From a virus (Duplodnaviria; Caudoviricetes), in IMG/VR virus record IMGVR_UViG_3300025809_001850: 64,000 nucleotides of DNA; one strand, written 5' to 3'. Both the position numbers and the translations under genes were made by a program. How positions within the stretch are numbered: position 1 is the first letter of the stretch; each line of letters starts with the position of its first letter. The notes under the pieces were generated by a model that was not told where the DNA came from, did no database searches, and saw nothing but the letters and a program-made list of their open reading frames with translations. Of the stretch, positions 3-20,699 are shown piece after piece.

Positions 3-908
3 TTGGACTTTGCTTTAAACTGGTTAAAGTATATTCGTGCATTGAATATGCAGAACATGGTGATAATGTATTGTTTGGATGACGAATCATTTGAACATAT
101 GTCCACAGAAAAAGACATTGAAAGTAAACGTTGGATAAGTTCTAATTTTCATATAGAAACCACTTCCGAGTTTCACCAAAAAGGATGGGATGCACTAATG
201 TGGAACAAAATGGAGGCTGCACATCAGTTGCTTACGCAAGGGTACAATGTTCTTTATGCTGATACCGACATCAACTTTTTAAAGAATCCATTATCAGACC
301 TTGAAAAAATTTGCGAAGAAGGAAATTATGATGTGGCATTTCAAGTTGCAGGTGGAGCAAGCATTTGTCCTGGTTTCTTTTATGCCAAAAGTAATGCTAA
401 AACAATTCATTTGTTTAACATTGACCGAGAAGATTTCAAACAAGGATACATTGAAACAAACGAAGACGGAGAAATCAAACAACGCAAATTTAAAGAAGAT
501 ATGATGCTTCTTAATCTTCGTTTGCATCGTGCGATTGAACCTGATGATATAAATTATGTACAACTTAGTGCGAATGGTTATCCACAGGGAGTTCATTGGG
601 AACGCAACATTAAAAATCGTGGTCGTGAACGAGCAGAACAAGACGCATTTATTGTTCACTTTAATTGTACTGTAGGTTGGAGCAACATTGATGAAATGAC
701 TGCAAACGGACTTCACAACTTTGATTATCATCAACGTAAAGTATGGAATATGCTTCGTCATGATATGTGGAAAGGAGATGTACCAGAAGGTATGATTGTA
801 CCGAAGGAAATTGTGGAAATGAAACCAGGACCTTTAACGAAAGCATTTCGAGCAGAAAAACGATCAAGAAGAGGTCGCAGAAAACGCACAGAAAACAAAG
901 CAAACTGA
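3..908 (+). CDS. nucleotide-diphospho-sugar transferase (GT77/Nucleotid_trans-like), 5' end may lie outside the window
   Basis: Motifs LMWNKM..YNVLYADTDINFLKNP (DxD), ICPGFFY, YPQG..FIVHFN; paralogous to 7906 and 14591. Confidence 0.7.
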   Translation: MDFALNWLKYIRALNMQNMVIMYCLDDESFEHMSTEKDIESKRWISSNFHIETTSEFHQKGWDALMWNKMEAAHQLLTQGYNVLYADTDINFLKNPLSDLEKICEEGNYDVAFQVAGGASICPGFFYAKSNAKTIHLFNIDREDFKQGYIETNEDGEIKQRKFKEDMMLLNLRLHRAIEPDDINYVQLSANGYPQGVHWERNIKNRGRERAEQDAFIVHFNCTVGWSNIDEMTANGLHNFDYHQRKVWNMLRHDMWKGDVPEGMIVPKEIVEMKPGPLTKAFRAEKRSRRGRRKRTENKAN

Positions 909-943
909 TATTTATTATAAAAAGTATTTAATGGAGAGAAAAA

Positions 944-3061
944 ATGGCAGATAAAATTAAAATAAGAGCAGGTACAGGTTTACAAACTACATTACAAAGT
1001 ACAGTAAACTACGCACAAGCATTCACAGAGTTGGCAAAAAATAGTTTGCAAAATGGAGCAACATATTGTGATATAGACATCGTAAACGCAGAAACAGAAA
1101 CTTACATAAAAGTAACTGATGATGGTCGTGGATTTGATCATGTTCGTGATGAAGAATACAATTTGAATGACTTTGAAAAATACTTCACGTTTGGTACTTC
1201 GTTTGATTTAGACAAACATGGAGATGGACCAAAACTCGGCAAAATGGGTATCGGTGGAAAGGTAAGTAACGATAAATTATCAATTGCAGGTGAATCTCAT
1301 TGGCAAATTCACACCAAGAATATTCACGGAAACTGCTTTGTAGTTGATTTTAATCCACCACAGGGTGCTAATTTCTTTGATGATTATCAACCACGTTGTG
1401 TAGAAGTGAAACCGGAAGATTCTTTAATCAAAACCAAAACTGGAACAGAAGTTAGAATTTTGAATGTCAATAAAGAATTTTTGAATACCGATTATGAAGC
1501 ATCTGTAAAAGCAGAATTGTTGCAATTTTTTGCTCATCTTATTGTCTCATACAAAAAGAACAATAAAATGCTTGATATTATTTTCATGGGAAATAAACTT
1601 GATTTTGATATTGATTTGAACGGAAATTATCGTGGTAAGATCACACGTACATTTAGTTATGAAATTGCAGGTGAAACAAAACATTCCACCTTTGAAATTG
1701 CTCTTAATGAATTTCGTGGAAGAATTCGTAGACAAAAAAACTCAAGTATTGTAAAAGCACTTGAATTAATTTCAGAAGTAAAAGTATGTGACATTCATTT
1801 AAACAATGAAGAAATTATTGAAAATATATTGTTAAAGTTATCCAAAGAAGAAAATACAGATATCGATGATACAGACTTTATGGGTAGAATGCATGGTTTT
1901 ATTGGTTATGTTCGTTGTGATGATTTAAGTAGAATTGAAGATGATCGTGGTATGATTGCAAAAAACATCTCTCACCACGGATTGAATGATGAACATCCTA
2001 TGGTAAAACCATTTCTTGTTGAAGTATATTATGTGGTGATGAAATTATTATACAATATATCTGCTTTGAATGTAAGAAAATCTACACGAACGGTAATGAA
2101 CAAAAATCTTATTGCGTATAATGTCGCAAAACTTTTGGCAAATGATTTTTCTAATGACATGGAAATTCTTACTGACAAAAAAATGTTGGGTTTGGACACT
2201 GTACAAAAAATAGATAACGCAGTTCAAAGAGACGATTTGGTATTAGAAAAATTACTCGGAAATACATACACTCCAACTGATAAACCAAACAAAGAATCAA
2301 CTGATAAACCAAACAAAGAATCAACCGATAAACCAAACAAAGAATCAACTGAAAACGAAACAGAAAACCTTCATACAATTAAACTTGATGAAAAGAACGA
2401 TAAAGTTGAAGACTCCAATACAGCACCAAACTCGGTGACGATAAATGACGAAGAAGTTGCCAAGGAACACAAACAATCAGAATCCTCACCTGCACCTGCA
2501 CCGACACCGAAAACATCGATGGTAGGTTCTATTGTAGATTCCACCAAGAAAAGATTTAATGAAGAGTCTGGTGATAACTCCGAAGCATCAACAGAGTATA
2601 CACAGATGACTCTTCCTGAATATAGAAAAATGTTATTGAAACGTTCTGGACTCAGAATTGATATAGAAGAATTAAAAGATGAAATAACAAGTGGAAATAA
2701 GACTGCAAAGAATACAAATAAACTCAACGAACTTGAACTTGAACTTCACACCATTGAAAATGTAATAAGTGGAATAAAGTTGTTTTATGCGATTGATTAT
2801 ATAGATAATCCTATGGTAATTTCAACTATTCGTGAATATCGTGATGGATTTATCATCGTAGTTAATGAAAACAATGTTCGTTATCGTTCAATTCAGTCCG
2901 ACATCATGTCACTTGCTCTTCATGTTGCAGAAGCAATGATCAAAGAAATCATTTATATTGAAGATAAAACGATTGATAAAGACCGTTTAGATTCTGAGTT
3001 ATCAAAATTCTACGAACGTCATTACAAACAATTACTAGGAAACGATTTACTTTCAATGTAA
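944..3061 (+). CDS. GHKL (HATPase_c, MORC/MutL/Hsp90-like) ATPase with acidic low-complexity linker
   Basis: N-box FTELAKNSLQNG, G1 VTDDGRGF, G2 GKMGIGGK, G3 TGTEV; GGAG SD upstream. Confidence 0.75.
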   Translation: MADKIKIRAGTGLQTTLQSTVNYAQAFTELAKNSLQNGATYCDIDIVNAETETYIKVTDDGRGFDHVRDEEYNLNDFEKYFTFGTSFDLDKHGDGPKLGKMGIGGKVSNDKLSIAGESHWQIHTKNIHGNCFVVDFNPPQGANFFDDYQPRCVEVKPEDSLIKTKTGTEVRILNVNKEFLNTDYEASVKAELLQFFAHLIVSYKKNNKMLDIIFMGNKLDFDIDLNGNYRGKITRTFSYEIAGETKHSTFEIALNEFRGRIRRQKNSSIVKALELISEVKVCDIHLNNEEIIENILLKLSKEENTDIDDTDFMGRMHGFIGYVRCDDLSRIEDDRGMIAKNISHHGLNDEHPMVKPFLVEVYYVVMKLLYNISALNVRKSTRTVMNKNLIAYNVAKLLANDFSNDMEILTDKKMLGLDTVQKIDNAVQRDDLVLEKLLGNTYTPTDKPNKESTDKPNKESTDKPNKESTENETENLHTIKLDEKNDKVEDSNTAPNSVTINDEEVAKEHKQSESSPAPAPTPKTSMVGSIVDSTKKRFNEESGDNSEASTEYTQMTLPEYRKMLLKRSGLRIDIEELKDEITSGNKTAKNTNKLNELELELHTIENVISGIKLFYAIDYIDNPMVISTIREYRDGFIIVVNENNVRYRSIQSDIMSLALHVAEAMIKEIIYIEDKTIDKDRLDSELSKFYERHYKQLLGNDLLSM
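2274..2352 (+). repeat. 24-bp tandem repeat x3.3 (caactgataaaccaaacaaagaat) encoding STDKPNKE
   Basis: Read directly; one substitution in copy 3. Confidence 0.95.
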
Positions 3062-3070
3062 GGTTTAAAA

Positions 3071-3745
3071 ATGATAAACCACGATATTAAATGCATATTC
3101 ATTCATATACCAAGAACTGCTGGTTCAAGTATATCAACTGCGTTATCTCAACGCAAAAAAGATGGTGAACGATTTGAAAAAACAAAACGTGATCCAAACG
3201 AATCCAAGAAGATTCACTTTAGTGTAGAACAGGCACAAAAAATGTTCGGCATGGATGTGTGGGAAGAGTATTTGACGTTCGCATTCGTAAGAAATCCGTG
3301 GGACAGACAAGTATCTCAATATCAATGGAGACTTGCCAAAGGAGAACGAGACGTTGCCAAACGTGACTTTAAAGAGTGGACAAAGTGGAGATGGGAAGGT
3401 TGGTTAAACTGGTTAGAGAATCCACGCAAGGTTATTCGTGGTGTTCCACAACTTGGACACCGTGATCGTGCAGTTGTATTGACAAAAGCATTTGATGAAA
3501 TCTACGATGAAAAAGAAGACAAGATTTTAGTGGACTTTGTGGGTCGTTATGAAAATCTTAGAGAAGATGTTGAAACTTTGTGCGGAAAACTGGGTGTAGA
3601 CAAGGACATCCTGTTACCCCACAAGCACAATGCAAAAAATCGTCCTCATTATACTGAATTCTACGATGATGAAACAATTGAAATTGTTCGTAAATTTTAC
3701 AAGAATGACATTGAAGTTCTTGGGTATAAATATGGGGAAAACTAA
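3071..3745 (+). CDS. carbohydrate sulfotransferase (Sulfotransfer_2/CHST-like)
   Basis: 5'-PSB HIPRTAGSS, 3'-PB FAFVRNPWDRQVS, C-terminal DFVGRYENL. Confidence 0.85.
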   Translation: MINHDIKCIFIHIPRTAGSSISTALSQRKKDGERFEKTKRDPNESKKIHFSVEQAQKMFGMDVWEEYLTFAFVRNPWDRQVSQYQWRLAKGERDVAKRDFKEWTKWRWEGWLNWLENPRKVIRGVPQLGHRDRAVVLTKAFDEIYDEKEDKILVDFVGRYENLREDVETLCGKLGVDKDILLPHKHNAKNRPHYTEFYDDETIEIVRKFYKNDIEVLGYKYGEN

Positions 3746-4278
3746 TGCTGTATTTATCTCTTGGGTCACAACCAGTTGTATCGTCTGTATTAAAAGGTTG
3801 TAATTTAAATACGAATTCAACTATTTTCGATAATGTCGGAGATTTATCATTTAAAACATTGTTGTTGTGTTTGAATACCCAATTCAAAGATTTTTTTCCA
3901 CCTGAAAATCAAATTCAAATTTATGGTGGAATTGTAAATGTTATCAATCAAGTTCCATATTATATAATTAAAGATAAAAGAAACGGAACATTATTTTATG
4001 ATGTATTGCCTGTAGGAAAGAAATCGGGTGCAATATACAACGGAGCAAAAACAAGGTATACAAAACTTGCTTCGGAATATACTAAAACAATTCAGACCAA
4101 TTCATCTATAATTTTTGTACGACAAATGCTTGATGATAACGAAAATGATACAATTGAATTGACGAACACTTTAAAATATGTTTATCCATCTTGTAGATTT
4201 TTTTTAAAACACAGATATGCAGGTATTGTGGAGAGTAAATGCTATCTATATTGGAAATCGGAGTTGTGTAAAATATGA
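3745..4278 (+). CDS. hypothetical protein, divergent DUF1796-like N-terminus
   Basis: N-terminal YLSLGSQ..STIFDN resembles the DUF1796 SLGxxC..PFDW pattern but lacks the Cys; coupled to neighbours. Confidence 0.35.
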   Translation: MLYLSLGSQPVVSSVLKGCNLNTNSTIFDNVGDLSFKTLLLCLNTQFKDFFPPENQIQIYGGIVNVINQVPYYIIKDKRNGTLFYDVLPVGKKSGAIYNGAKTRYTKLASEYTKTIQTNSSIIFVRQMLDDNENDTIELTNTLKYVYPSCRFFLKHRYAGIVESKCYLYWKSELCKI

Positions 4279-5027
4279 AAATATTATTTTTAATATTGGA
4301 TCATGCAAGTGTTTATGACCAATCAATTGCTTGTCAAAGAACATGGGTTAAAAATATTGACACCAGACACGAAATAATTTTTTTAGGTGACACCTCGATG
4401 CCGGGTAATATACTTTTACATGAGGTGTATAAACCTTTACACTCGGAAACTCGGTCAGATATAACTGAAAAAATTGTCAAGGGATTTAGACACTCGTTAA
4501 AAAAAGACTGGGATTATTTGGTCAGATGTGATACAGATGTATATTGTAATATATCTGAATTAGAAAAATTTTTAAATATTTGTGATAAAACCAAACCACT
4601 ATATGCAGGACATGGAGTTTACAGTCAGTCTCCAACGGGACATCCGAATTATATGGTGACTGATTTAAAAGATATACCGAAAAAGAAATACTGGTATTTT
4701 GCCCAAGGTGGGTTTTATATTCTATCAAGGTCTGCACTTGAAAAGACTATTGATGATATGTATTTTCCAGGTCCAATTGAACCGGAATCAGAAGATGTAA
4801 TGGTGGGAGATGTTATGAAACAACAAGAAATACTTTTAAGAGACAGACCTGATTTGTTCAATGTAGGTTGGGTTGGTGAAGGGTGGGGTGGAAACACTGA
4901 GTTGCCGAGAGAGAATACTTTATCTGAACATTTGGATATAATGAATAACAATTTTATTTCGACACACAAAGTAAATGCAAAGCAAATATATGCAATTCAC
5001 GAACTAATTGAAAAAAAATATGGATGA
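4275..5027 (+). CDS. GT31/fringe-like galactosyltransferase
   Basis: DYLVRCDTDVYCN, FAQGGFYILSR, EDVMVG motifs. Confidence 0.7.
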   Translation: MKILFLILDHASVYDQSIACQRTWVKNIDTRHEIIFLGDTSMPGNILLHEVYKPLHSETRSDITEKIVKGFRHSLKKDWDYLVRCDTDVYCNISELEKFLNICDKTKPLYAGHGVYSQSPTGHPNYMVTDLKDIPKKKYWYFAQGGFYILSRSALEKTIDDMYFPGPIEPESEDVMVGDVMKQQEILLRDRPDLFNVGWVGEGWGGNTELPRENTLSEHLDIMNNNFISTHKVNAKQIYAIHELIEKKYG

Positions 5028-5820
5028 TTATTGTGCATTATATTGTATTGGTGATACAAACTCAGAATATTTTGAGAATGGTTTACTTGTCAGTATAAGG
5101 TCACTTAGAAAAAGTAATCCAAATATACCAATTGAAATTTTTTATACAGATTTAAATAAATCGCAAATAAATAAATTATCAAAATATAATTTGACAAAGA
5201 TTAATCCAACTGGATTTTCGGAAGGAAGTCGTGACGATCTAGGAACTGCTATGTTTTTAAGGTTATATTGTGGAATATTACATAAAAAATATAAAAAAAT
5301 AATTTATTTAGATGGAGATACAATAATATTAGATAATTTAGATAAACTTGCAAATTTAAGTGAGTATCCAATTTATGCAAGAAACTGGATAAACTTAGAG
5401 CATTTGGAAACCAAGTGGAATGAGAAACTTTTCAATGAATTGAAACTTTCAACAAATGATTTCAATATAAATTCAGGTGTGCTTGTTATAGATCCAAAAT
5501 TTATGAATGAAACTAATTTTTGCGATAAAGCAAAAATGCTTGGTAATAATATAGGATTTGAAAACTTATATAATCCAGACCAAATCATTATTTATATGTT
5601 ATGTAAACAATTAAATTGTCTTGGTACATTTGATCTAACATGGAATTTTATGAAATATAAAGATTTTCAAACCGAAGATTTTGAGTTAAAAATAAATTCG
5701 AATAATTTAGTGTGTCCATTTTTATTAAATAAGAACCAATTTGTTAACATTGTTCACTATAATTCTACCGAAAAACCCTGGACGACAAATATGACAGAAG
5801 AGTATAAACAATTTGTATAG
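5020..5820 (+). CDS. glycosyltransferase family 8
   Basis: MFLRLY..IIYLDGDTII, INSGVLVI, PDQ, VHYNSTEKPW; ATG at 5020 preferred. Confidence 0.85.
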   Translation: MDDYCALYCIGDTNSEYFENGLLVSIRSLRKSNPNIPIEIFYTDLNKSQINKLSKYNLTKINPTGFSEGSRDDLGTAMFLRLYCGILHKKYKKIIYLDGDTIILDNLDKLANLSEYPIYARNWINLEHLETKWNEKLFNELKLSTNDFNINSGVLVIDPKFMNETNFCDKAKMLGNNIGFENLYNPDQIIIYMLCKQLNCLGTFDLTWNFMKYKDFQTEDFELKINSNNLVCPFLLNKNQFVNIVHYNSTEKPWTTNMTEEYKQFV

Positions 5821-5836
5821 TAATATTTATTTTAGA

Positions 5837-6577
5837 ATGAACAATGTCAAAAAAATATCAATGGTTGTAATGAACTGGTTAAGACCAGAAGTTCTTCAAA
5901 ATCATATTCTTCCTGATATGACAAAATACGAACTCATTGATGAAATCATAATTTCACATGGTCGTGAAGATACTTATTTTGAATTTGACCATCCAAAGAT
6001 TGTCAATCGTAAAGATTGGGGTGAAATAAATGAATATTATGGTCTTAGTCGAAGATTTTTGGCTGCATCGGAAGCAAGTAACGAAATAATATTGATGATA
6101 GATGATGACGAGTATCCAACTGAGGATGCAGTCAAAAAGATGTATGATATTCACACTGAAAATCCAAAAAGGATGATAGGACCATTTGGACAAAATTTAA
6201 GATGGGGTAACTACAACTTACATATGAGGTATGGAGATGTGTGTGTTTTAATAACAAAATGTACAATGTTTGAAAGAAGTTTATGTAATCACTTTTTCAA
6301 GCATATGCCAATTATGCGTGAAATTTTAAAAGAAGGTCAACCTTATTGGAACGGAGAGGATATTTTAATGTCAGCAGTTGCACGATTTCATTATGGGGTT
6401 AATAATCTTGGTGTAAAAAATTGTGGTAATATGAATCCCATTGAAGGTCGTGAAAATAAAAGAAATAGAGCAATTGCGAGTTGGAAAGGGCATCGTGAAT
6501 ATCGTGGCAAAGTAGTGTGGCATTGTGCCCGTTACTTTAATATATGGCACGAATGGACAGGAGAAAGCAATGAATAA
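5837..6577 (+). CDS. GT64 (exostosin/EXTL C-terminal-like) glycosyltransferase
   Basis: VMNWLRP, YGLSRRF, ILMIDDD, WNGEDILMS motifs. Confidence 0.65.
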   Translation: MNNVKKISMVVMNWLRPEVLQNHILPDMTKYELIDEIIISHGREDTYFEFDHPKIVNRKDWGEINEYYGLSRRFLAASEASNEIILMIDDDEYPTEDAVKKMYDIHTENPKRMIGPFGQNLRWGNYNLHMRYGDVCVLITKCTMFERSLCNHFFKHMPIMREILKEGQPYWNGEDILMSAVARFHYGVNNLGVKNCGNMNPIEGRENKRNRAIASWKGHREYRGKVVWHCARYFNIWHEWTGESNE

Positions 6578-7256
6578 TCCGTTTGACTTTTTTGATGAAA
6601 TATACTGCATAAATCTTGAGAGACGAACTGATAGATGGAATCAATGTCAATCTGAGTTTGATAAAATTGGAATTGCTGATCGTGTAATAAAATTTGATGC
6701 TTTTGATAACAAAGAAAATCCCAAGAAGGGTTGTTATGATAGTCATTTGAGTGTTATCAAGTTAGCATATGAAAGAAAACTAAAAAATGTATTGATCTTT
6801 GAGGATGATGTTGCTTTTTTAAAAAAATATGATGATAAAATATTAAGCAAATCAATTAAAAGTTTAAACGAAACAAATTGGGAATTTTTTTATTTGGGTG
6901 GTTTGGAGAGAAGAATTAAACCACGACCAAAATACAACCGTTTATCAAACGAGTGGCAAGGTGAGTTTAACGAAGAGTATGATTATATAATGGAATGTTC
7001 ATCGGTAGGTTGGGCGCACTCATTTGCAGTAAATTGTTCAATATTTGAACGTATTGTGAGTGACTACGACAATAACATTTGGAATGTTCTTGTGGAAAGC
7101 CATGACAGTCATCTTGATAGATATTATCAAGAAGTGCTAAAACCGAAAACTTATGTATGTGTACCTTCACTTACAACACAATACAATTTAGTGAGTGATT
7201 TGACACGCACTCGTACAAACCGAAATTTGAGATTAAATCCAACGGATAATATCTAA
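6570..7256 (+). CDS. glycosyltransferase family 25
   Basis: YCINLERRTDRW, GCYDSH, VLIFEDDV, FFYLG, AHSFAVN. Confidence 0.85.
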   Translation: MNNPFDFFDEIYCINLERRTDRWNQCQSEFDKIGIADRVIKFDAFDNKENPKKGCYDSHLSVIKLAYERKLKNVLIFEDDVAFLKKYDDKILSKSIKSLNETNWEFFYLGGLERRIKPRPKYNRLSNEWQGEFNEEYDYIMECSSVGWAHSFAVNCSIFERIVSDYDNNIWNVLVESHDSHLDRYYQEVLKPKTYVCVPSLTTQYNLVSDLTRTRTNRNLRLNPTDNI

Positions 7257-7909
7257 TGAAAAATCCATTTGATTTTTTTGATGAAATTTATTGTATAAAT
7301 CTTGATCATCGCACAGACAGATGGAAAAATGTGCAGACTGAATTTGAAAAACTTGGAATTGCAGATAGAGTGAAGAGAATATCTGCGGTTAATCGTGAAG
7401 ATGTAAAGAAAAAACACGGTGACTTGGTTACACATCTAAGTAATCCTAAACTTGGCCAACTTGCAGTTACAGAAAGTTCACGTAAATGCATAGAAGATGC
7501 AATCAAATGCAATGCAATAAATTGTTTAACATTTCAAGATGATGTTTGTTTTCGTAATTATGATGCTGATTTTTTTCGTGAAGCATTAAATGAACTTCCT
7601 GAGGATTGGGAAACTTTATTTCTTGGGTATGAGTGTTGGAAACGAAGGCAATTGAAACAAATACACTCAGAAAGACTTTTAAGAATTGAAAAGTTTTGGA
7701 TGGCACACGCAGTCGCAAACAATGCAAGAGTTTTTGACAGATTATATTTAGATATAGATAAAATACCAAATCCACTTGAAAACAGAGAAGGATCGCATGA
7801 AGAATTGTTGTGGGACTATAATAATTATGGTTTGAAATATGAACATAGATTTGCATTTCAAGTGGACAATGAAAATGATAGTGATATTAATGACGGAAAA
7901 ATTTTATGA
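7256..7909 (+). CDS. glycosyltransferase family 25
   Basis: YCINLDHRTDRW, TFQDDV, WETLFLG, AHAVA. Confidence 0.8.
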   Translation: MKNPFDFFDEIYCINLDHRTDRWKNVQTEFEKLGIADRVKRISAVNREDVKKKHGDLVTHLSNPKLGQLAVTESSRKCIEDAIKCNAINCLTFQDDVCFRNYDADFFREALNELPEDWETLFLGYECWKRRQLKQIHSERLLRIEKFWMAHAVANNARVFDRLYLDIDKIPNPLENREGSHEELLWDYNNYGLKYEHRFAFQVDNENDSDINDGKIL

Positions 7910-8721
7910 AAATAGTAAGTGCGTGTAATTTTGGATATTTGCCATTAACATTAAATTGGTTAAAATCATTAGAACTTCTTGGTTTACAAGAAAATGTATT
8001 ATTGTATTCACTTGATAAAAAAGTGCAAGAAGCATTAAATGAAAAGGGAGTAGAAAATATATTATGGGAGACTACCAAGTTTTCAGACATTCCAGAAGAG
8101 CATAACTCAATTCATTCAGATGCTTGGGCAGACATTGTATTTAGAAAAATAGAGTTAGTAAATGCGACATTGAAATCCGGTGAAGATGTATTTTTCACGG
8201 ATTCCGACATTATCTTTAAAAAGAATCCTATTGAACACTTGGAAGGGATTACCAAGAATTTGGACATGGTTATTCAATGTGAAGGACATCCCACTCGTAA
8301 TCCACTTGCTTGTAGTGGTGTTTATTATGCCAAAAGTTGCGAATCAACAATCAGTTTAACAACGGTTGACCTAGAGTATATGGAATGTGTGGCAAACAGA
8401 CTTGTAGGACTACGTAGAACTCCATTTAAGTTTGATTGCGACCAAGGGTACTTAAATGCAAGATTGGGATTAAAACCACGCACTTGGAAGTTTAACAAGA
8501 TGTTTGCAGATGAAGAAGTTCGTTTAGACGTAATGTCTGAACCACACACCAAGTTTGATTTTCTGTCAAGAGATGAATTTCCAACTGGTGATTATTGGTT
8601 GGACAATCAAGAACGAGTCAAGGATAGATGTTATTTGATTCACTACAATAGTCATCGTCTTCAGGGACCAATGGAGAACAAGATAAATCAAATGAAGAAG
8701 GATGGTAATTGGTTGATATGA
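7906..8721 (+). CDS. nucleotide-diphospho-sugar transferase (GT77-like)
   Basis: RKIELVN..VFFTDSDIIFKKNP, CSGVYY, DQG, FPTG..LIHYN. Confidence 0.75.
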   Translation: MKIVSACNFGYLPLTLNWLKSLELLGLQENVLLYSLDKKVQEALNEKGVENILWETTKFSDIPEEHNSIHSDAWADIVFRKIELVNATLKSGEDVFFTDSDIIFKKNPIEHLEGITKNLDMVIQCEGHPTRNPLACSGVYYAKSCESTISLTTVDLEYMECVANRLVGLRRTPFKFDCDQGYLNARLGLKPRTWKFNKMFADEEVRLDVMSEPHTKFDFLSRDEFPTGDYWLDNQERVKDRCYLIHYNSHRLQGPMENKINQMKKDGNWLI

Positions 8722-9476
8722 AAATAAAAAACAACATAACAAATTCATATCCAATCGCATTCCATTTAAATGGTGGATTTGAAAATTGCAAAGTTGGTTA
8801 CGATTTGTTTGACGATGAAACAATAAACAATTGGAATTGGAATTCAACAGAAGAATTGAGGGATGACGTGACTTTGTGTTTTGCAAAGTGGGGTGACGAA
8901 TCCAAGTTTGTATGTACCTTGGATGAGAACTTAAAAAGATTCAATATGTCTTATCTGAATATTGGAGAAAACTTCGATCCAACTAACTTCTCGTATGATG
9001 AATCAAGAGTACGCAAACCACATTTGTTGCATGAAAATTTAAATGAAATTACCACGAAATATATCATGGGGTGGGATGTTGACGTATTTTTTACGGAACA
9101 TCCAAATCACGTAGTTGAGAGATTTGAAAACGAGTTTGATTGTGAATGGTTGTTTAACGCAGAGAATACTTGCTTTCCAATGACTCGTCCACGGAAACAG
9201 GCAATGGGTCTTTATAGAAAGTGGAAGGAACACAATGATCTTGTTGGTGAATCTCCGTTCAAATATTTGAATTCCGGATTGTTCATTGCAAAGGTTGATT
9301 TCTTCAGAGAGATTTTTGAAGATATAATAAACACACCATTGTTTGAAGATCAAACTGATCAAGGTCAGTTTCATCAAATTTATAGAAAGTATTTTCCACG
9401 AATGCAAATTGATTATGGTTGCAGAATTTTTCAGTCTTTGTATAAGTTAGATGAAAATTGTTTGGAGGTGATATAA
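8718..9476 (+). CDS. PLOD/LH3 N-terminal glycosyltransferase-domain-like protein
   Basis: WDVDVFF, WLFNAENTCFP, FKYLNSGLFIA, DQTDQGQF, IDYGCRIFQSL resemble the GT domain of procollagen lysyl hydroxylases. Confidence 0.65.
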   Translation: MKIKNNITNSYPIAFHLNGGFENCKVGYDLFDDETINNWNWNSTEELRDDVTLCFAKWGDESKFVCTLDENLKRFNMSYLNIGENFDPTNFSYDESRVRKPHLLHENLNEITTKYIMGWDVDVFFTEHPNHVVERFENEFDCEWLFNAENTCFPMTRPRKQAMGLYRKWKEHNDLVGESPFKYLNSGLFIAKVDFFREIFEDIINTPLFEDQTDQGQFHQIYRKYFPRMQIDYGCRIFQSLYKLDENCLEVI

Positions 9477-9478
9477 AA

Positions 9479-10531
9479 ATGAAATATTTGACTATTACTA
9501 ATGAAATCTCCACACCGGGTCGAAGGTATATAAAAGCAAACCACGGACATCAGCTTAAAGATTGGATTGGTGGTCTTGTAATTTCTAAATTGCTTAAGTT
9601 AGAATATGTCCACACACCCTACGAATATTTAGATTTTTTTACAACTGATCAGTATGATTTGCAAATACATGATATGAAAAATCTTGATACACTGGATTTC
9701 AGTGACTTCTTGCAAAATAAACACGGAAGACATATAAATCAAATTTGGGGTCAATACCACGGCCACTATGTAGATCAAATAAACTTGCTCAGATGTGATG
9801 AACTTAATAAAATTTCAGATAATATTGTACTAAAAATAAATAACGGATCAAAAAAATGTAAAATTAAATCTGGATTCAAAAACATGAGGGTGTATAGAAT
9901 GCAACCCTGTGTAGTAAACCAATGGTTTCGTAATAAATTTATTTCACATAATATATTGGATGAAATAATAGATGAATTGACAAATAAATTTAAAAAATAT
10001 CATAAAAACTACAAAAGTTATTATGACACGGATAAAGTAAATGTTGCTGTTCATATTGGGCGTGGGGTTGACTATAATGATGAGTGGTTATTAAACCAAC
10101 CATCTTTCGTGGAACGTCATATGTTTAGTTTGAAGTATTTTGAAACCATTTTTAATCAACTTCGTGTAATTTACGGAGATAAAATTATTTTTCACATTTA
10201 TACTGAAGAAAATAATTCAGAGGAAATAGTATCTAAATTTTGTAATAAAAAAGATATAAAATTACATATTGGAAATAACAGAACTGATTTAAAATATAAT
10301 CTAGTACACGATATTTTCTATCATTTTGTAATGAGTGACATATTAATACCTTGTAATAGTGCGTTTAGTGTCGTTGCTTCTTATTACAGAAAGAACAAAA
10401 TAACTATTTATCATCCACATGAACATTTATTTGGTATGCCAAAAAAAAATGGATACATTCCAACATCGGAAGATGGAATATTTGATACTAAATTTGTTAG
10501 CAACTACACAAAGGAATGTGGTTATGGGTAA
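9479..10531 (+). CDS. fucosyltransferase-like (GT11/GT-B) glycosyltransferase
   Basis: GHQL, VAVHIGRGVD, FHIYTE, FYHFVMSDILI..SAFS. Confidence 0.6.
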   Translation: MKYLTITNEISTPGRRYIKANHGHQLKDWIGGLVISKLLKLEYVHTPYEYLDFFTTDQYDLQIHDMKNLDTLDFSDFLQNKHGRHINQIWGQYHGHYVDQINLLRCDELNKISDNIVLKINNGSKKCKIKSGFKNMRVYRMQPCVVNQWFRNKFISHNILDEIIDELTNKFKKYHKNYKSYYDTDKVNVAVHIGRGVDYNDEWLLNQPSFVERHMFSLKYFETIFNQLRVIYGDKIIFHIYTEENNSEEIVSKFCNKKDIKLHIGNNRTDLKYNLVHDIFYHFVMSDILIPCNSAFSVVASYYRKNKITIYHPHEHLFGMPKKNGYIPTSEDGIFDTKFVSNYTKECGYG

Positions 10532-11249
10532 TTTACACATCTGCTTTTGTGGTGATGAATCTGTCGTAAATAAATACACTACGGTTATTAACTCCATCCA
10601 AAAAAAGAATTCGCACCATACTATTAATATTCATTTTATCCGTCCGTTTGATTCATGTGAAGATTACGAAGAATTAAAAAAACACGTTGCTTCATTTGAC
10701 AATCTTAACTTATTTGAATATCATAAAACTTGGGAAAGTAATTATAATGGAATGGAACATATAGAAAGTTCTGCTACAATGATAAGATTGTATATTCCTG
10801 AATTACTAAATGTTGACAAAGTAATTTATTTGGACATGGATTTAATTGTAAACATGGATTTACAAACATTATACGAAATAGATTGTGAAGAACATGGAAT
10901 TGCGATGGCAAATCATATGGACACACCGAGACGTGATAGAAGAAGATTAGGTTTGGGAAAAAAATTATCGGGTAATGCAGGTGTAATGGTGCTTGATTTA
11001 AATCGTCTTCGTGAAAATGATTTTACAAACAAGTGCTTAGAATATAATAAAACACACGGAGGCAATGACCAATGTGCAATCAACTGGTATTGTCGTGGAA
11101 CACACAAAATACTTGAAGTAAAGTATAATTTATTTTACGCAGATAATGGTTATTTGATAAATACCTTAGAAGATTATATTTTCCACTGGGCAGGTCCATA
11201 TAAACCTTGGCATGATAAAATTGACAAATATGATTTTTTGTGGGAATAA
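10524..11249 (+). CDS. glycosyltransferase family 8
   Basis: TMIRLYIPELL, VIYLDMDLIV, NAGVMVLDL, NDQ, HWAGPYKPW. Confidence 0.85.
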   Translation: MGNLHICFCGDESVVNKYTTVINSIQKKNSHHTINIHFIRPFDSCEDYEELKKHVASFDNLNLFEYHKTWESNYNGMEHIESSATMIRLYIPELLNVDKVIYLDMDLIVNMDLQTLYEIDCEEHGIAMANHMDTPRRDRRRLGLGKKLSGNAGVMVLDLNRLRENDFTNKCLEYNKTHGGNDQCAINWYCRGTHKILEVKYNLFYADNGYLINTLEDYIFHWAGPYKPWHDKIDKYDFLWE

Positions 11250-11286
11250 ATTATAAAAATAAATATTTATAAAAAAGGAGAATTTT

Positions 11287-11907
11287 ATGAGTGATAAAAA
11301 TGAAAATATGGTATTGATTATTGGTGATTCAATTGCAAGGCATTACTATCCGTTTGCCGAAGAACATCTTAAAAATAAAAACGTAGAAGCAGTAACATCA
11401 GTAAAATGGGTGTCGTGCCAATGGAAGCAACTGAGATTTCTTGAAAAAAATTGCAAACCAAAACGTCGTGGGTGTGATATTCCGGCTGCTTATTGTCATT
11501 TTAATTTTGGATTGCATAGTATTAAACTTCCAAGCAAGGGACATGATCCAGAACATCAACGTGCAAAACCTGAAGAATTTGAAATTTATGAAAAAGAGTT
11601 GGTAGAGCAAATTGAAACTTTGTGGAGTTATTCAATAAAACCATTATTTTCAAATACTACACCAAATCCAAAAAATGCCGCCACTCGCAATGATGCGGAT
11701 GTTGCGATACTCAATGAGATTGCTAAAAAGGTATGTAACGAAAAGGGTATACCACACAATGATTTATATTCATTCGTAAAATCTCAAGAAGATTATCCAA
11801 GATTGTATTTACATCCACGTGCAGAAAATAATTGTCACTTTGATACACACGGAAGAAACATTATTGGTGAAAACATTGCGGAATTTATATTGGATAACAT
11901 GGAGTAA
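11287..11907 (+). CDS. SGNH/GDSL hydrolase (esterase or acyltransferase)
   Basis: Block I LIIGDSI, FNFGLH, terminal NNCHF His motif. Confidence 0.7.
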   Translation: MSDKNENMVLIIGDSIARHYYPFAEEHLKNKNVEAVTSVKWVSCQWKQLRFLEKNCKPKRRGCDIPAAYCHFNFGLHSIKLPSKGHDPEHQRAKPEEFEIYEKELVEQIETLWSYSIKPLFSNTTPNPKNAATRNDADVAILNEIAKKVCNEKGIPHNDLYSFVKSQEDYPRLYLHPRAENNCHFDTHGRNIIGENIAEFILDNME

Positions 11908-11911
11908 TTTC

Positions 11912-12592
11912 TTGGAAAAGAAAATTATATTTGTAGGTTTTAATAAAACTGCAACGACAAGTATTCATTCTACACTTAAACAAAATGGTATAGATAGCAA
12001 GCACCGTGCGGGTGTTTGGCGTTTCAAGAACCGATACAATAAACTGAAACAAGTTGTGACAAGAAGAGATGCCGTGAGTGACTGGGGTGACACTCATGTT
12101 TCAATTGAAGTTCTTTTGAGATTAAATTCTGACTTTGACAATTTATTGTTTGTGTTGAATACACGGAATTTAGAAAACTGGATCAAGTCAAGATTTAAGC
12201 ATTATTATTTTAATAAGTCGTGGGATTTTGATAATAGAGAAGTCGGTCTTGATGATATATGTTTAGAAAATGCTCAAAAATTTATACGTCACCGCAATGA
12301 GTTTTATCTTAAATGTTGTGAGTCGTTTGATAAAAATAATTTCATTCTACTTGATATTGATAAAGATAATTTTTATGACCACATATCTTCCAAAATCAAT
12401 TTAAAATTAAATAAGATAGATTCTAGGAAAAATGTAAGACCCATATCAAAACTTGATCAAAATTTTAGTGAAAAATACAATAAAGTTAAAAATGAACTGT
12501 TGGAACACTACAATGAAGTAACATTAAATAATGTGCTTACTACAAACGACTGCACCAATCAAAAACTAATGCAGTTTGAAAATAATATATAA
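11912..12592 (+). CDS. sulfotransferase family protein (Sulfotransfer_4/P-loop-like)
   Basis: FVGFNKTATTSI (5'-PSB), FVLNTRNLENWIKS (3'-PB); TTG start at 11912 preceded by GGAG. Confidence 0.65.
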   Translation: MEKKIIFVGFNKTATTSIHSTLKQNGIDSKHRAGVWRFKNRYNKLKQVVTRRDAVSDWGDTHVSIEVLLRLNSDFDNLLFVLNTRNLENWIKSRFKHYYFNKSWDFDNREVGLDDICLENAQKFIRHRNEFYLKCCESFDKNNFILLDIDKDNFYDHISSKINLKLNKIDSRKNVRPISKLDQNFSEKYNKVKNELLEHYNEVTLNNVLTTNDCTNQKLMQFENNI

Positions 12593-13276
12593 ATGAAACA
12601 GAATTTAATAAATGATTTGATTGATAAATTTGTATTGCTTAAAACAAATAGTGATTATCGTGTGTACGATTTGGTAACTCGGTACGGTGCCAGGTGGAGA
12701 GAAAGTAAACACGAAATAAAAACAAATCCAATTTATTCAGATACAATATTATTTAAGTATTTTAAAAGACGGGGTAAACGTGGCAAACTTGATATAAATT
12801 TATTATTGAATACAATAATAGAACATAGAGATGAAAAAAAATATAAAATACCAAATGAAGACGAGTTGGTATTTCACTTGAGATTGGGTGATCATGCGTA
12901 TCATAATAACTTTTTATCCAAAGATTATGTTGGTTTAATAAAAAACATAGTAAAAGATAATAATATAAGAAAAATAACCTTTGTCGGAGCATTTGCTTAT
13001 CAGGTGTGGTCAGAAGATACAATGAACATTAAACCTAAAGATTGTCCTACTTGGGAGTACACCGATGAAATACAACAAAGAAACATAAATGGATTAAGAC
13101 GGGTATTTGGGGATATTTTAGACAATTTTGATTTACCGATTGAAATATATTCAAATTTAGATATTGATAAAGATATATGCTATTGTGTATCTGCGAAGCA
13201 TTTTATATGTGATGTTGGAAATTTAGGAGGTTTGATGAAAAAACTAGGGATTTTAAATCAGGAAAATACAAAGTGA
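12593..13276 (+). CDS. fucosyltransferase-like protein
   Basis: LVFHLRLGD donor-binding motif; short. Confidence 0.45.
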   Translation: MKQNLINDLIDKFVLLKTNSDYRVYDLVTRYGARWRESKHEIKTNPIYSDTILFKYFKRRGKRGKLDINLLLNTIIEHRDEKKYKIPNEDELVFHLRLGDHAYHNNFLSKDYVGLIKNIVKDNNIRKITFVGAFAYQVWSEDTMNIKPKDCPTWEYTDEIQQRNINGLRRVFGDILDNFDLPIEIYSNLDIDKDICYCVSAKHFICDVGNLGGLMKKLGILNQENTK

Positions 13277-14598
13277 GCAATCAGAATCCATTTGATTATT
13301 TCGATAAAATAGTTTGCATTTGTGCTAAGACAGAGTCAACACGATGGAACTCCATTCAAAGTGTTTTTGAAAAACTAAATATTAAAAAAAGAGTTGAAAG
13401 GTTTGACGAAGTAATAGATTCCGATAAATTAAAAAACGAATTCAACTCCGATGAATTTAGTAAAACTGATTATTGTCATTACAAAATAATTGAAACTGCT
13501 AAAAAAGAAAAATTAAATAACATTTTTATATTTGAAAGTGATGTTGAAATAAATGAAGATTTAGTGGATATAGAACTTTCTATTTCTCAGTTAGAAAACG
13601 TAGATTGGTCTTTATTTTTTCTAGGAGGAGTTCCACATAATGTTTTAAATGTGCATACTGAACATTTATTAAATGGAACAATGTGCCAGGCACATTCATA
13701 TGCGGTTAACGGGAAATATTTTGATGATGTTTTGAATAAATTATTATCAGAGAAAGTTGCAATAGACCAAGTATATAAACGAGATCAAAAAAATGAAATA
13801 GGTGAAAAGTCTTATTTCTCAGGCAAATGTTTTTTCGTACAAAAATTAGACGAAGATATTCCGAGAGCAGAACTTCCTCATAGAAAACTAATATCTGAGT
13901 TTAAGTACAATTCTATCGTCAAAGATGTAATTGATTTATATAATAAAAATATAGCATGGGTAGTTAGTGATACCGGTAAAGGAAAACTTCATAGAATGAT
14001 TCGTAGTAATTTTGTAGAATCATTAAAACGAAATAAAATAAATACTACTCCTGCTTTTGTAAGAATTAAAGATTTACCAGAGAATTATGGAAAACGAAAG
14101 TTTACAATGATACGAGACGAACTTTCACAAAATAAAATTTGCTTTTTTTCAGATACAAAGGTAGTGTTTTTAAAAAACTGCTTAGATGAATTGTTTTCTT
14201 ATTTGAATGAATATGATTTAATAATTATGGCAGATGGTGGTCATTTACCTGCATATGAATTTGAAAAAAATATTTTAAATTTTAATGTATGCATAGCAAA
14301 ACCCACAGATTATATAAAATCATTGTTTTGGCCAAGAGGTTATGGTGAACCGGTTTTAAATGATTTACGTGAAGATGTATCTATTTTTAATGACAAGTTA
14401 AACTATAAAAAGAAATTTACACATAATACTAAAATAAAAATTTTAGATTCATCTGAGTATTGTATGCTAGATTCATATAATGCAAGTGGTGATGAAAAAA
14501 TAATTAACTTTGCAACAGAAGATTTGTTTGATAAGCATCCACGTACTATCATAAAATCATTTAAGCAAGCAAACTGTTGGTTTATCGAGGATGAATGA
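13273..14598 (+). CDS. two-domain glycosyltransferase: GT25-like N-terminus plus nucleotide-diphospho-sugar-transferase-like C-terminus
   Basis: NPFDYFDKIVCI, FIFESDV, FFLGG, AHSYAVN; then ICFFSDTKVVFLKN and NFNVCIAK. Confidence 0.6.
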   Translation: MSNQNPFDYFDKIVCICAKTESTRWNSIQSVFEKLNIKKRVERFDEVIDSDKLKNEFNSDEFSKTDYCHYKIIETAKKEKLNNIFIFESDVEINEDLVDIELSISQLENVDWSLFFLGGVPHNVLNVHTEHLLNGTMCQAHSYAVNGKYFDDVLNKLLSEKVAIDQVYKRDQKNEIGEKSYFSGKCFFVQKLDEDIPRAELPHRKLISEFKYNSIVKDVIDLYNKNIAWVVSDTGKGKLHRMIRSNFVESLKRNKINTTPAFVRIKDLPENYGKRKFTMIRDELSQNKICFFSDTKVVFLKNCLDELFSYLNEYDLIIMADGGHLPAYEFEKNILNFNVCIAKPTDYIKSLFWPRGYGEPVLNDLREDVSIFNDKLNYKKKFTHNTKIKILDSSEYCMLDSYNASGDEKIINFATEDLFDKHPRTIIKSFKQANCWFIEDE

Positions 14599-15298
14599 TT
14601 TTAAAATAATTTCATTTTGTAGTTTTGATTACATTGAAGTTGCAAAGAACTGGGTACAGTATCTATCCAACTATAATATTGAAAATTATGTAATAGTAGC
14701 AATGGACACAGAAACCTACAATCATCTACTAGAGCAAGAAATTAATACAAAACTTGTACATGGAGAAATACTAAAACGGTCGGGAACTGGATGGAAGTTT
14801 CGTTTTCAAACAATGTATGAAATGCTAAAAGATGGAAATATCCTTCATTGTGACTTGGATGCCATTTGGTTAAAAGATGCTCGTAATTTACTTGATGATG
14901 AACATGATATAATTGCATCAAAAGATGACGGTGGGTGGCCACCAAAAGCATACGAACATTTAAATTTCACGATGTGCATGGGTTGGATATTTTTCAGAAG
15001 CAATGATAATGTTAAGAATATATTTGAAAAAATTCTTCAAAAAGAATCTGACTTTGATGATCAGCAAGAATTTAATGAGTATATTGTTGATAATTTAAAA
15101 AGTAACAATATTTATTATAAAAATGAAAACGAGAGAATTTTAAAGGTTGATGATGTAAAAATACGTGTTTTAAATGAAACGGATGTATTTCGTGGAAATT
15201 ACAACGAAGCATCTTATGTTTGTCATCCGTTAATAAAAAAACAAGCAAATAAACAAGTTCAACTGAAAAAGAGAGGACTTTGGTACAATGAGAAATAG
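14591..15298 (+). CDS. nucleotide-diphospho-sugar transferase (GT77-like)
   Basis: VAKNWV..VIVAMD, ILHCDLDAIWLKD, CMGWIFFRS, DDQQEFN. Confidence 0.75.
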   Translation: MNDFKIISFCSFDYIEVAKNWVQYLSNYNIENYVIVAMDTETYNHLLEQEINTKLVHGEILKRSGTGWKFRFQTMYEMLKDGNILHCDLDAIWLKDARNLLDDEHDIIASKDDGGWPPKAYEHLNFTMCMGWIFFRSNDNVKNIFEKILQKESDFDDQQEFNEYIVDNLKSNNIYYKNENERILKVDDVKIRVLNETDVFRGNYNEASYVCHPLIKKQANKQVQLKKRGLWYNEK

Positions 15299-16043
15299 AA
15301 AAAATAAAAAAGATGTAGATTGTGAAATACTAATTGCTATTAATAGTTGCGAAAAAGATCGTGAGCATTTAGAAAAACTTAAATCATCAGAATTTTATGC
15401 AGAACTTGAAAGAAATCCTGATATTGGTATATTTGAGTTTTATCGTGGAAGTGATGAAGTTAAATTTGAAAATCAACAACTTCATTTAACAGGTGAAGAG
15501 CGATATGATAAACTTCATGTAAAAACTTATGATATGATAAAATGGGCAACAAGTAATTTAAGTTTTAATCGTTTGGTGAAACTTGATTGTAATTTTATGT
15601 CTTATAGCCATGTTGGTGAACGCACACGAAAAAAAATATGTGGACTTGATCGTGTAAATCGTGCAATTTTTAAACAAAAATTTGCATCATACTTAGGGTC
15701 AAATGGTCGTGAATTTTTGTTAAGAGATTTTCGTGCATGGTCAAAACAAAAAGGAATTGTGACGCAACTCGATGAACCAACATGGTTGACTGATGGAATT
15801 TGGTATTTTTGCGGAAAGTGCTATCGTGTTAGCTATGAGTTTGCAAAGTTTATCGCAGAGCAAGACGTATGTGTTGAAATGTTAAAACAGCATGATGTTA
15901 AAAATATTCTTGGCCATCATCCGTTCGCAATTGAGGATGTAATGATTGGCAGAATGCACAGTGCATATGAAGAGCATATTAAAGCACTCACAGAACTCGA
16001 AGAAAATTCTGCCGATGAAACAATACATAATAACAGAACGTGA
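15288..16043 (+). CDS. GT31-like glycosyltransferase
   Basis: YDKLHVKT, LVKLDCN, YFCGKCY, EDVMIG. Confidence 0.45.
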   Translation: MRNRKNKKDVDCEILIAINSCEKDREHLEKLKSSEFYAELERNPDIGIFEFYRGSDEVKFENQQLHLTGEERYDKLHVKTYDMIKWATSNLSFNRLVKLDCNFMSYSHVGERTRKKICGLDRVNRAIFKQKFASYLGSNGREFLLRDFRAWSKQKGIVTQLDEPTWLTDGIWYFCGKCYRVSYEFAKFIAEQDVCVEMLKQHDVKNILGHHPFAIEDVMIGRMHSAYEEHIKALTELEENSADETIHNNRT

Positions 16044-17016
16044 CGTAGGCCTTGCAAGTTTATTCTTTCAGGTCATCAACGCACTAAATCGTTGTGAAAA
16101 AGAAGAACTTGGAACACCAATCGTTTACTTTAAGAATCAATGTGTTTATTATAATCAAGAAGGTCATCAAAACAAAGACAATGTTTGGGAATATTATTTT
16201 CGTCCTGTTGTAGAAACTGCGGATACTTCGTGCATATCAGAACAAAATAAATTGGAAATTGAAAATGCTTATCTAAATACAGAACCCAAGAAACTAAATA
16301 ATAGTCGTTTCGTTAAGTTGAGTAATCGTAACAAAATGTGTTGTCATTACGGAGATAGAAAACTGGGACACACTATGATTGTTCCTCCACATTTGATTCC
16401 AGAAGTTTATGAAGATGGTCATCGTGAAAAAGCAAATGCAATCATCAACAAATACTTCAAACTTAGAATGTATCTTAACAATAAAATCAACGACTTTTTC
16501 GCAGAAAATTTAGCAGACGCAAAAAAGGTTCTTGGTGTTCATATTCGTGGAACAGATGCACTTGTAAATAATGCGGAAAGATGGAGAAAGACCTTCGATA
16601 TTCAGAATTATATTAACTGCATACGAATATTTATAGACAAGTATGGAGATGAAGGAAAAGTGTTTGTTGCAAGTGATGATGCGAAGTTGTTTAACATCGT
16701 TAAAAACGAATTTAATGATGCTATCGTTGAATATGATACATTTCGTCAAGAAGAGAATGATGTTGGCAAAAGTGGTGATAATACAAAGGGTAATGCTATG
16801 ATGCCAACATATTTATGCGATGACGGAGCAAAAGCAGCTCAAAACGGAGAAGATGCAATTGCTGAAATGTATTTACTAAGCAAGTGCGATTATTTGCTTC
16901 ACAACGCAAGTGGATTTGCTCATGTTGCTTTGTTATTGAATTCAGAAATGAAACACACAGATAGTCAGAGACCGGGTGGCAAAGAAACTTTGAATAAATT
17001 TGAAGAAATTGTATAA
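16015..17016 (+). CDS. NodZ/O-fucosyltransferase-like glycosyltransferase
   Basis: GLASLF, NVWEYYF, LGVHIRGTD, VFVASDD, AEMYLLSKCDYLLH. Confidence 0.75.
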   Translation: MKQYIITERDVGLASLFFQVINALNRCEKEELGTPIVYFKNQCVYYNQEGHQNKDNVWEYYFRPVVETADTSCISEQNKLEIENAYLNTEPKKLNNSRFVKLSNRNKMCCHYGDRKLGHTMIVPPHLIPEVYEDGHREKANAIINKYFKLRMYLNNKINDFFAENLADAKKVLGVHIRGTDALVNNAERWRKTFDIQNYINCIRIFIDKYGDEGKVFVASDDAKLFNIVKNEFNDAIVEYDTFRQEENDVGKSGDNTKGNAMMPTYLCDDGAKAAQNGEDAIAEMYLLSKCDYLLHNASGFAHVALLLNSEMKHTDSQRPGGKETLNKFEEIV

Positions 17017-20674: not shown

Positions 20675-20699
20675 TTACTTGTTTTTATATTTATATTGG

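Follow-up and report, generated by a model that had tools for sequence, protein, structure and literature searches.

Large, polymorphic islands of glycosyltransferase (GT) and nucleotide-sugar genes are already known from large phages, where they are usually read as modifiers of host lipopolysaccharide (LPS); the LPS-like clusters of jumbo cyanophages (P-SSM2 type; PMC7824862) are a case in point. Self-glycosylation by Nucleocytoviricota, as with the chlorovirus capsid GTs and mimivirus R699 and L230 (PMC9614988), similarly employs soluble, anchor-free GTs and sugar-nucleotide genes carried by the virus itself. Phage GTs have also been cited as candidates for virion decoration in mycobacteriophages, in connection with capsid and tail-tube glycosylation (PMC12619734, PMC11256854), and marine bacterial loci for sulfated glycans combine GTs with sulfotransferases and include GT64- and GT77-type members (Pontiella, PMC7356697; loci L009, L093, and L094). 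Here we describe a glycan island in the virus record IMGVR_UViG_3300025809_001850, of which 64,000 nt were analyzed (the window; positions are window positions, and genes are named by their start).

The island spans positions 3 to 40888 (~41 kb) and holds ~25 to 30 GT genes: 24 have Pfam GT matches at E <0.05, and about five more are GT-like by motif or by likeness to their neighbors. Eight eukaryote-type genes, whose families are familiar chiefly from Golgi enzymes and giant viruses, make up roughly one-third of these; the others are GT8, GT25, GT11, GT23/NodZ-like, GT2/GT7C-like, and RgpF. Compared with the jumbo cyanophage clusters, which comprise 15 genes in all, the island is far larger, and it adds sulfotransferases, its own supply of 3'-phosphoadenosine-5'-phosphosulfate (PAPS), and GT77, GT31, and GT64 members for which 50,697 sequenced phage records give no match. 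It departs from the Nucleocytoviricota systems in belonging to a tailed phage with an operon-like layout, and in having a PLOD-type GT that is permuted and without accessory or hydroxylase domain. In the mycobacteriophage cases cited, two or a few GTs are involved and their action has been shown, whereas here dozens of GTs plus sulfation are read from genes; and the bacterial loci include exporters or can use them, whereas the phage island has none. The island is an unusually rich variant of the phage GT island, and the family calls set out below stand.

The window (GC content ~33%, a single co-directional stretch) is assigned to a tailed phage because PHROG matches to a tail fiber, a dNMP kinase, a RusA-like resolvase, and an endonuclease are joined by 48 open reading frames (ORFs; 41 kb) without a strand switch, against 5 to 9 switches per 12 to 20 ORFs in giant-virus loci. 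A giant-virus genome was considered and rejected, given that the mixed-strand monocistronic layout is not seen and that the tail fiber and resolvase are of phage type. No capsid or terminase gene was found in the 64 kb.

Eukaryote-type families and a permuted PLOD domain

The eight ORFs that an initial annotation had picked out as eukaryote-type GTs are all present at the positions it assigned, on the plus strand, and seven of them pass Pfam cut-offs: four GT77-type genes (in 13273, the C-terminal part) and one each for GT31, GT64, and PLOD-GT, in agreement with its calls (scores in Table 1). Hidden Markov models (HMMs) placed none of the eight in ordinary GT2 or GT8; a GT2 assignment of 5837 was rejected, the GT2 score being 21.4 against a cut-off of 23.3 while GT64 passes. 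"GT77-type" denotes membership of PF03407, which is broader than CAZy GT77, the family of the plant RRA and RGXT enzymes and Dictyostelium AgtA, with retaining alpha-xylosyl, alpha-galactosyl, or arabinosyl transfer. The DxD motif of these proteins reads D-T-D (3), D-S-D (7906), and D-L-D (14591), and is degenerate (D-T-K) in 13273; the GT77 profile found no match in the PDB by sequence. PHROGs contain no family for GT77, GT31, or GT64, and a literature search returned no report of the three in phages.

The GT64-family profile matches EXT2, EXTL3, EXT1, and EXTL2 in the PDB (E 3e-10 to 1e-5), and bacterial heparosan synthase ranks below them (5e-5). As in EXTL2 and the C-terminal domains of EXT1, EXT2, and EXTL3, an S-x-R-F motif, DDD, N-x-E-D, and a late His/Arg can be aligned, and the catalytic motifs DDD and WNGED (NxED) and the His/Arg are invariant or near-invariant in 33 sequences aligned to EXT2. 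The activity characteristic of GT64 is transfer of alpha-1,4-HexNAc onto a GlcA acceptor. Unlike the EXT enzymes, 5837 has neither a membrane anchor nor a GT47 partner, and its subfamily is a compact one, with members in phages, giant viruses, and marine bacteria.

Of the two genes called GT31-like, 4275 retains D-T-D, and its best matches in the PDB are CHSY3 (E 0.0096) and C1GalT1; no relatives were found in IMG/VR, metagenomes, phages, plasmids, or 201 Planctomycetota, so that no tree was possible. For 15288 the call fails in Pfam (14.2 against 23, E 0.039) and is upheld by fold: the top matches of its AlphaFold model (pLDDT 79) among 48,161 chains are all GT31 (B3GalT6, Z 13.9; B3GalT5, 13.7; B3GNT2, 11.9; CHSY3, 11.5; C1GalT1, 10.6), with the first non-GT31 structure at 10.3. 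Its family has D-C-N or D-G-N where DxD is expected, together with an invariant E216-D217 (the EDV motif). On this structural model, 15288 is GT31-type by fold with a DxD that is not intact. It has no BLAST similarity to 4275, and its profile found no sequence match in the PDB. Single-protein scans of IMG/VR with 14591 and with 15288 gave no match.

The PLOD-type protein 8718 is a single domain of 252 amino acids (aa), without the canonical order, the accessory domain, or the lysyl hydroxylase domain. Its closest described counterparts by sequence and by structure are mimivirus R699 and the GT domain of human LH3 (PLOD3), to which it is ~20% identical: the PLOD-family profile finds R699 at E 6e-14 and LH3 at E 1e-10 in the PDB, and the 8718 model superposes on LH3 with Z 14.1 (rmsd 3.2, 182 aligned residues) and on R699 with Z 13.4. 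Profile positions 66 to 243 match R699 29 to 198, and positions 73 to 243 match 41 to 209 of LH3 chain 6wfv, whereas profile positions 1 to 23 match the segment that follows these in the canonical proteins (6wfv 219 to 241; R699 from 205), a match that is weak alone (7 to 9 bits). The metal site of LH3 comprises Asp112, Asp115, and His253 (PMC6082870), and the counterpart of this His in R699 is H216 (PMC12279948). In the 8718 family the two Asp are kept in W-D-V-D-V, and the moved segment carries the predicted counterpart of the metal-site His, the near- or fully invariant His16; metal- and acceptor-site residues are largely kept, including the equivalents of R699 K62, D83/D86, N138, D163/Q164, and H216. 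The structural alignment spans model residues 47 to 252 against LH3 35 to 233, with both ends left over, and an H-x-N-G motif that comes after the YLNSG motif in canonical proteins precedes it in 8718-type ones. When the moved segment is left out of the tree, a 99/97 split still parts permuted from canonical orders, long branches being present. Structural alignment, motif order, and tree split all support the weak N-terminal match: as far as sequence and model can tell, 8718 is a PLOD-type GT circularly permuted relative to LH3 and R699. A literature search found PLOD-domain permutation in no paper, and the domain is a clear structural variant, newly described.

Permuted forms occur in the group of the window phage, in L095 (461 kb), in L096, in the gp23-bearing L097, and in one planctomycete; the canonical order is found in PLOD-GTs of giant-virus metagenome-assembled genomes (GVMAGs) and of small phages. 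Both orders are present within the phage group, a close relative (L119:4519-5301) having a canonical-order PLOD-like GT in a variable slot. Separately, proteins of 610 to 740 aa that appear to join a GT25 domain, a canonical PLOD-GT, and a further domain (L098, L101, and L104, each at ~5150-7130; L100 and L102) are common to small phages and GVMAGs and adjoin structural genes in the phages; they are candidates for an all-in-one collagen-modifying enzyme.

Distribution, trees, and possible exchange with giant viruses

The expectation that these families are rare in ordinary bacteria and present in Nucleocytoviricota was borne out. Of 251 Pseudomonadota genomes, 40 have GT25, 4 have PF03407, 1 has PF01762, and none has PF25342, and the GT64 profile hits only the genome used as center; of 201 Planctomycetota, 5 have PF03407 and 1 is hit by the PLOD profile. 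All four families (GT77-type, GT31, GT64, and PLOD-GT) nonetheless have bacterial as well as giant-virus members. The GT64 subfamily is found in 26 GTDB loci (L060 to L085) from six phyla, several on chromosome-scale contigs, and one of these bacterial genes adjoins GT2, an ABC transporter, and sulfotransferases. Some of the lineages are sponge symbionts, many of the genes apparently come from sponge-associated genomes, and the scatter over six phyla suggests transfer within a sponge-associated niche. Further GT64 members lie on five GVMAG contigs, on a 289-kb contig with IleRS, RING, and MIF4G genes, on other large phage-type contigs, and in prasinovirus-like loci. In three of the latter (L012, L016, and L039, ~5998-6800), labeled from capsid-like and packaging-ATPase-like neighbors and not by HMM, the GT64-type gene has a fixed place beside those neighbors, which hints at a role in the virion there.

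GT77-type genes occur in Thiohalocapsa, in Methylocella, and in bacterial-type glycan loci, and, on a eukaryote-type scaffold, in a protein of three domains whose N terminus has a hydrophobic segment. One 2.08-Mb bacterial chromosome carries five in tandem outside any polysaccharide locus (L092:9037-13977), and a bacterial-type glycan locus (L094:8001-12920) encodes a 1639-aa protein that unites a GT77-type, two sulfotransferase, and two GT2 domains. Atlas neighbors of GT77 include clusters that are mostly Nucleocytoviricota; GT31 neighbors of the 15288 model come from giant-virus (TM 0.63), plant (0.62), and Verrucomicrobiota (0.56) clusters. PLOD-GT domains are also present in cultured cyanophages, small phages, and GVMAGs.

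The labels of relatives need a word of caution. IMG/VR marker typing identified only G004 (terminase) and G467 (gp23), and the complete 461-kb genome of L095 (G466), which carries a GT island, gave no match for gp23, Terminase_6N, sheath, or the capsid of nucleocytoplasmic large DNA viruses (NCLDV). Most "phage" labels of IMG/VR relatives rest on gene layout because marker searches were mostly empty.

The trees are unrooted, lack eukaryotic GT64, GT31, and PLOD members and characterized GT77 members, and thus do not test a eukaryotic donor. In the GT64 tree, megaphage proteins form one clade (100/100), which groups with the giant-virus loci L011 and L022 plus three unplaced proteins; support for this is 99/92 in a 66-row tree and 88/89 in a 44-row one. 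Approximately unbiased (AU) tests reject none of the alternatives (phage with bacteria, p 0.22; both phage groups together, 0.098; all giant-virus rows together, 0.24). The GT77 copies fall into two lineages. Gene 14591 sits among phage-type operon genes, while 3, 7906, and 13273 group as a phage clade (97/94) within a 20-row set (96/87) that also holds a eukaryotic and a bacterial-type protein, the branching there being unclear. The 26 IMG/VR loci found with a broad GT77 profile are all non-GVMAG, nearly all are single-stranded operons, and most have sulfotransferases. Where closest relatives were found, they lie in marine phage operons (phage-type operons for GT77 and PLOD-GT), and the trees did not nest the genes in one bacterial LPS lineage.

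The initial annotation had raised gene exchange with giant viruses, a proposal that these results do not establish: the GT64 grouping is unstable, no alternative is rejected, and every family has bacterial members. That the phage lineage directly took at least one of these genes from Nucleocytoviricota, or gave one to them, is in our view doubtful, and the matter is independent of what the enzymes act on. The 99/92 grouping with L011 and L022, the Nucleocytoviricota-rich Atlas neighborhoods of GT77 and 15288, and the rarity of the families in bacteria speak for it. Resampling lowers the GT64 support and the AU tests keep the alternatives, though; identity to every outside group is only 32 to 40%, no GT77 locus from IMG/VR is a GVMAG, and low-GC viral proteins may attract one another in trees. 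Giant-virus PLOD-GTs are canonical and lie across the 99/97 split from 8718, which argues against a recent giant-virus source for that gene. The trees show a shared pool and give no donor or direction; judged from sequence, the genes probably represent an ancient stock of soluble, free-standing GT domains spread over large marine phages, giant viruses, picoalgae, and scattered marine bacteria.

Variable content, probable late expression, and candidate acceptors

Gene content varies around a conserved core. Genes 13273, 14591, 15288, 15946, 17016, and 19164 recur in 16 related loci, often at 85 to 96% identity (for 14591, orthologues 55 to 92% identical in 13 of the 16), and in L001 and L121 to L125 gene 15288 is fused behind a sulfotransferase-type domain. 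By comparison, 7906 has no orthologue above 30% in the same loci and is replaced in L114; in the slot 4275-5008-5837, L001 and L125 have a GT2 gene and an unknown gene, L124 has other genes, and L112 has only GT64; and the PLOD gene appears in varying places at 37 to 92% identity. Four of the eight genes (4275, 5837, 7906, and 8718) are therefore absent, replaced, or moved in close relatives, and the island is a variable toolkit. The "protein O-glycan assembly line" of the initial annotation survives in part: a protein acceptor is plausible from gene context, while one fixed pathway was rejected, the accessory genes differing among close relatives. We infer from the mosaicism and the conserved core that this is a surface-glycan locus under diversifying selection.

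Timing is suggested by an octamer, TATTTAT(A/T). Within the window 13 of its 20 plus-strand copies lie 3 to 27 nt before an ATG (counted within 30 nt), against 7.5% expected, and it heads island genes, the gene leading into the fiber, and the PAPS genes. In ten cases the spacing is 3 to 7 nt, which suggests leaderless transcripts. No copy heads any of the small genes after 56.5 kb, which show TTGAC boxes in their gaps, and a sigma-70 scan of 1 to 20 kb remained at chance level. The octamer (copies from 909 to 52981) closely resembles the T4 late promoter in reverse complement; a literature search returned nothing on it. It is not found before gp23 in the unrelated phage G467, which gives its late role no confirmation. 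We read the motif as a candidate late promoter and the island as putatively late-expressed.

Taken with this gene context, we give roughly even chances to the reading in which soluble, probably late-expressed enzymes glycosylate and sulfate proteins of the virion. Late in infection the phage would make nucleotide sugars and PAPS; GT-A and GT-B transferases, sulfotransferases, and acyl-modifying enzymes would then build up, on the structural proteins themselves (fibers, appendages, perhaps the capsid), a branched glycan carrying fucose and sulfate, in the manner of giant viruses and some mycobacteriophages. The core 13273-14591-15288, with 15946, 17016, and 19164, would be kept, and the swapping of accessory GT31 4275, GT64, one GT77, and PLOD-GT between strains would make the glycan vary among them. 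By family analogy, GT31 would form beta-1,3 links and GT64 add alpha-1,4-hexosamine, GT77 and GT8 would place alpha caps, GT11 and GT23 would attach fucose, and sulfotransferases would sulfate. A membrane segment is absent from every ORF of 1 to 41 kb (19-residue hydropathy at best <=1.59), so the proteins should act in the cytoplasm, unlike Golgi enzymes; membrane enzymes of Golgi/ER type were considered and rejected, the island proteins having no N-terminal anchor or hydrophobic segment. Nor was a flippase, polymerase, ligase, ABC exporter, or lipid-carrier initiating transferase recognized in the island, which therefore cannot alone make and export O-antigen. The fiber has six collagen tracts with nine Lys at the third position, and neighboring proteins have Thr/Pro tracts; to judge from their sequences, these structural-type proteins are plausible candidate acceptors. 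The closest solved relatives of the enzymes act on protein-linked glycans, the mosaic content with its highly similar core genes fits a surface glycan under selection, and mycobacteriophages offer a precedent for phage GTs that glycosylate the virion (cited in PMC12619734).

Several points weigh against a virion coat. No peptide-initiating enzyme and no lysyl or prolyl hydroxylase was recognized in the window; the late meaning of the motif is itself only predicted; and GT fold relatives are only 14 to 35% identical, so that the acceptor is not predictable from them. The ~25 to 30 transferases seem to exceed the apparent need of one virion glycan. In bacteria, GT64 and GT77 homologues accompany GT2, ABC transporters, and sulfotransferases in loci for surface glycans, RgpF, GT8, GT25, GT11, and Rml are classic LPS or rhamnan genes, and similar cyanophage clusters have been read as diversifying host O-antigen (PMC7824862). 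These last points favor conversion of the host surface, in which the enzymes would extend or cap host LPS, capsule, or glycolipid on a lipid carrier by way of host exporters, blocking superinfection or grazing. Mosaicism fits this equally well, and we regard it as possible, though not probable: the island has no membrane protein or exporter, it adjoins fiber genes, and conversion should be early, whereas the candidate late motif is common to the island and structural-type genes.

A narrower use of the fiber, with GT25 and PLOD-GT placing Gal and Glc on its hydroxylysines as COLGALT and LH3/R699 do, would suit the collagen tracts with their third-position Lys, the R699 residues retained in 8718, and the adjacent GT25 genes. 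It appears decidedly unlikely, given that the window has no lysyl hydroxylase, that 8718 is permuted and without accessory domain, and that its gene is moved or replaced among relatives; moreover, the PLOD family is not bound to collagen, because R699 also accepts free glucose (PMC12279948). Phage GTs are also described as hypermodifying DNA (10.1101/2023.12.21.572611), and a GHKL ATPase travels with the island, yet glycosylation of phage DNA, or synthesis of a free polysaccharide or small glycoside, strikes us as highly improbable: no pyrimidine-modifying gene was recognized in the island, and the many chain-extending and capping families with sulfotransferases point to a large branched glycan.

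Layout of the window and significance

Feature positions are collected in Table 1. Beyond the genes of the initial annotation, the same first 16 kb hold two GT8 genes, two GT25 genes, one or two sulfotransferases, an SGNH protein, and a GHKL ATPase. Nearly all relatives (L112, L116, L118 to L120) carry the SGNH-like gene (11287-11907), either once or twice, and its product is possibly an O-acyltransferase or esterase for the glycan. The GHKL ATPase lies within a few genes of GT77 in the window phage, L001, L002, and a second large-phage lineage of 15 IMG/VR loci (among L138 to L158; 36 to 41% identity). Downstream of the island come the tail fiber, two Thr/Pro-rich proteins, CysC-CysD-CysN, and a GalE-like gene, followed by small genes; a lone tRNA-Met (56736-56811) marks the boundary between the late-type block and these small genes.

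Table 1. Features of the window (scores in bits, with Pfam cut-offs where given)
Feature	Position	Strand	Remarks
GT77-type (PF03407) GT	3..908	+	63.3 (gathering cut-off 22); 5' end beyond window start; L001 orthologue 85% identical
TATTTAT(T/A) motif	909..916	+	Heads the GHKL ATPase run; candidate phage late promoter
GHKL (HATPase_c_3) ATPase	944..3061	+	Pfam
Sulfotransferase (Sulfotransfer_2)	3071..3745	+	66.8
GT31/fringe-type GT, accessory	4275..5027	+	PF01762 40.8 (cut-off 23); Fringe 29.1 (cut-off 21)
GT8	5008..5820	+	66
TATTTAT motif	5824	+	Before GT64 gene 5837
GT64 (exostosin C-terminal) type GT, accessory	5837..6577	+	PF09258 46.6 (cut-off 21.3)
Two GT25 genes	6525..7909	+	47.8 and 26.2
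GT77-type GT, accessory	7906..8721	+	PF03407 75.6 (gathering cut-off 22)
Stand-alone PLOD/R699-type GT domain, circularly permuted	8718..9476	+	PF25342 (GT_PLOD) 34.6 (cut-off 27)
GT8	10419..11249	+	115.3
TATTTATA motif	11264	+	Before SGNH/GDSL-like gene 11287
SGNH/GDSL-like protein (below cut-off) and sulfotransferase-like protein (borderline)	11287..12592	+	
GT25-like N-terminal half and GT77-type C-terminal half, core gene	13273..14598	+	GT25 part by likeness to GT25 neighbors; PF03407 28.5 (cut-off 22), residues 270-396
GT77-type GT, core gene	14591..15298	+	PF03407 64.4 (gathering cut-off 22)
Divergent GT31-fold protein, core gene	15288..16043	+	Structure model
Rest of island	15946..40888	+	GT23/NodZ-like, GT11, GT25, GT2/GT7C-like, RgpF, sulfotransferases; RmlA/B/D-like, MetK; few housekeeping genes interspersed
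Candidate acceptors	42722..51681	+	1934-aa tail fiber with six collagen tracts; Thr/Pro-rich-tract proteins 48581 and 50476
Motif copies	52379, 52974	+	Before PAPS genes
CysC-CysD-CysN (PAPS supply) and GalE-like epimerase	52392..56288	+	Read from translations

The most far-reaching form of these ideas would have widespread marine megaphages build a proteoglycan-like, sulfated, fucosylated, and strain-variable fiber coat with their own GT31, GT64, GT77, and permuted PLOD enzymes, as a counterpart of giant-virus fibril glycosylation, with at least GT64 exchanged with giant viruses; we consider this rather unlikely as a whole. If the virion-coat reading is true, phage particles with heavy glycosylation and sulfation would be common in marine waters and would influence host attachment, decay, and the cycling of carbon and sulfur. 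Being small and soluble, the GT64, GT31, GT77, and PLOD-type domains should be easily expressed, and they offer reference points from the prokaryotic world for how Golgi and ER enzyme families arose.

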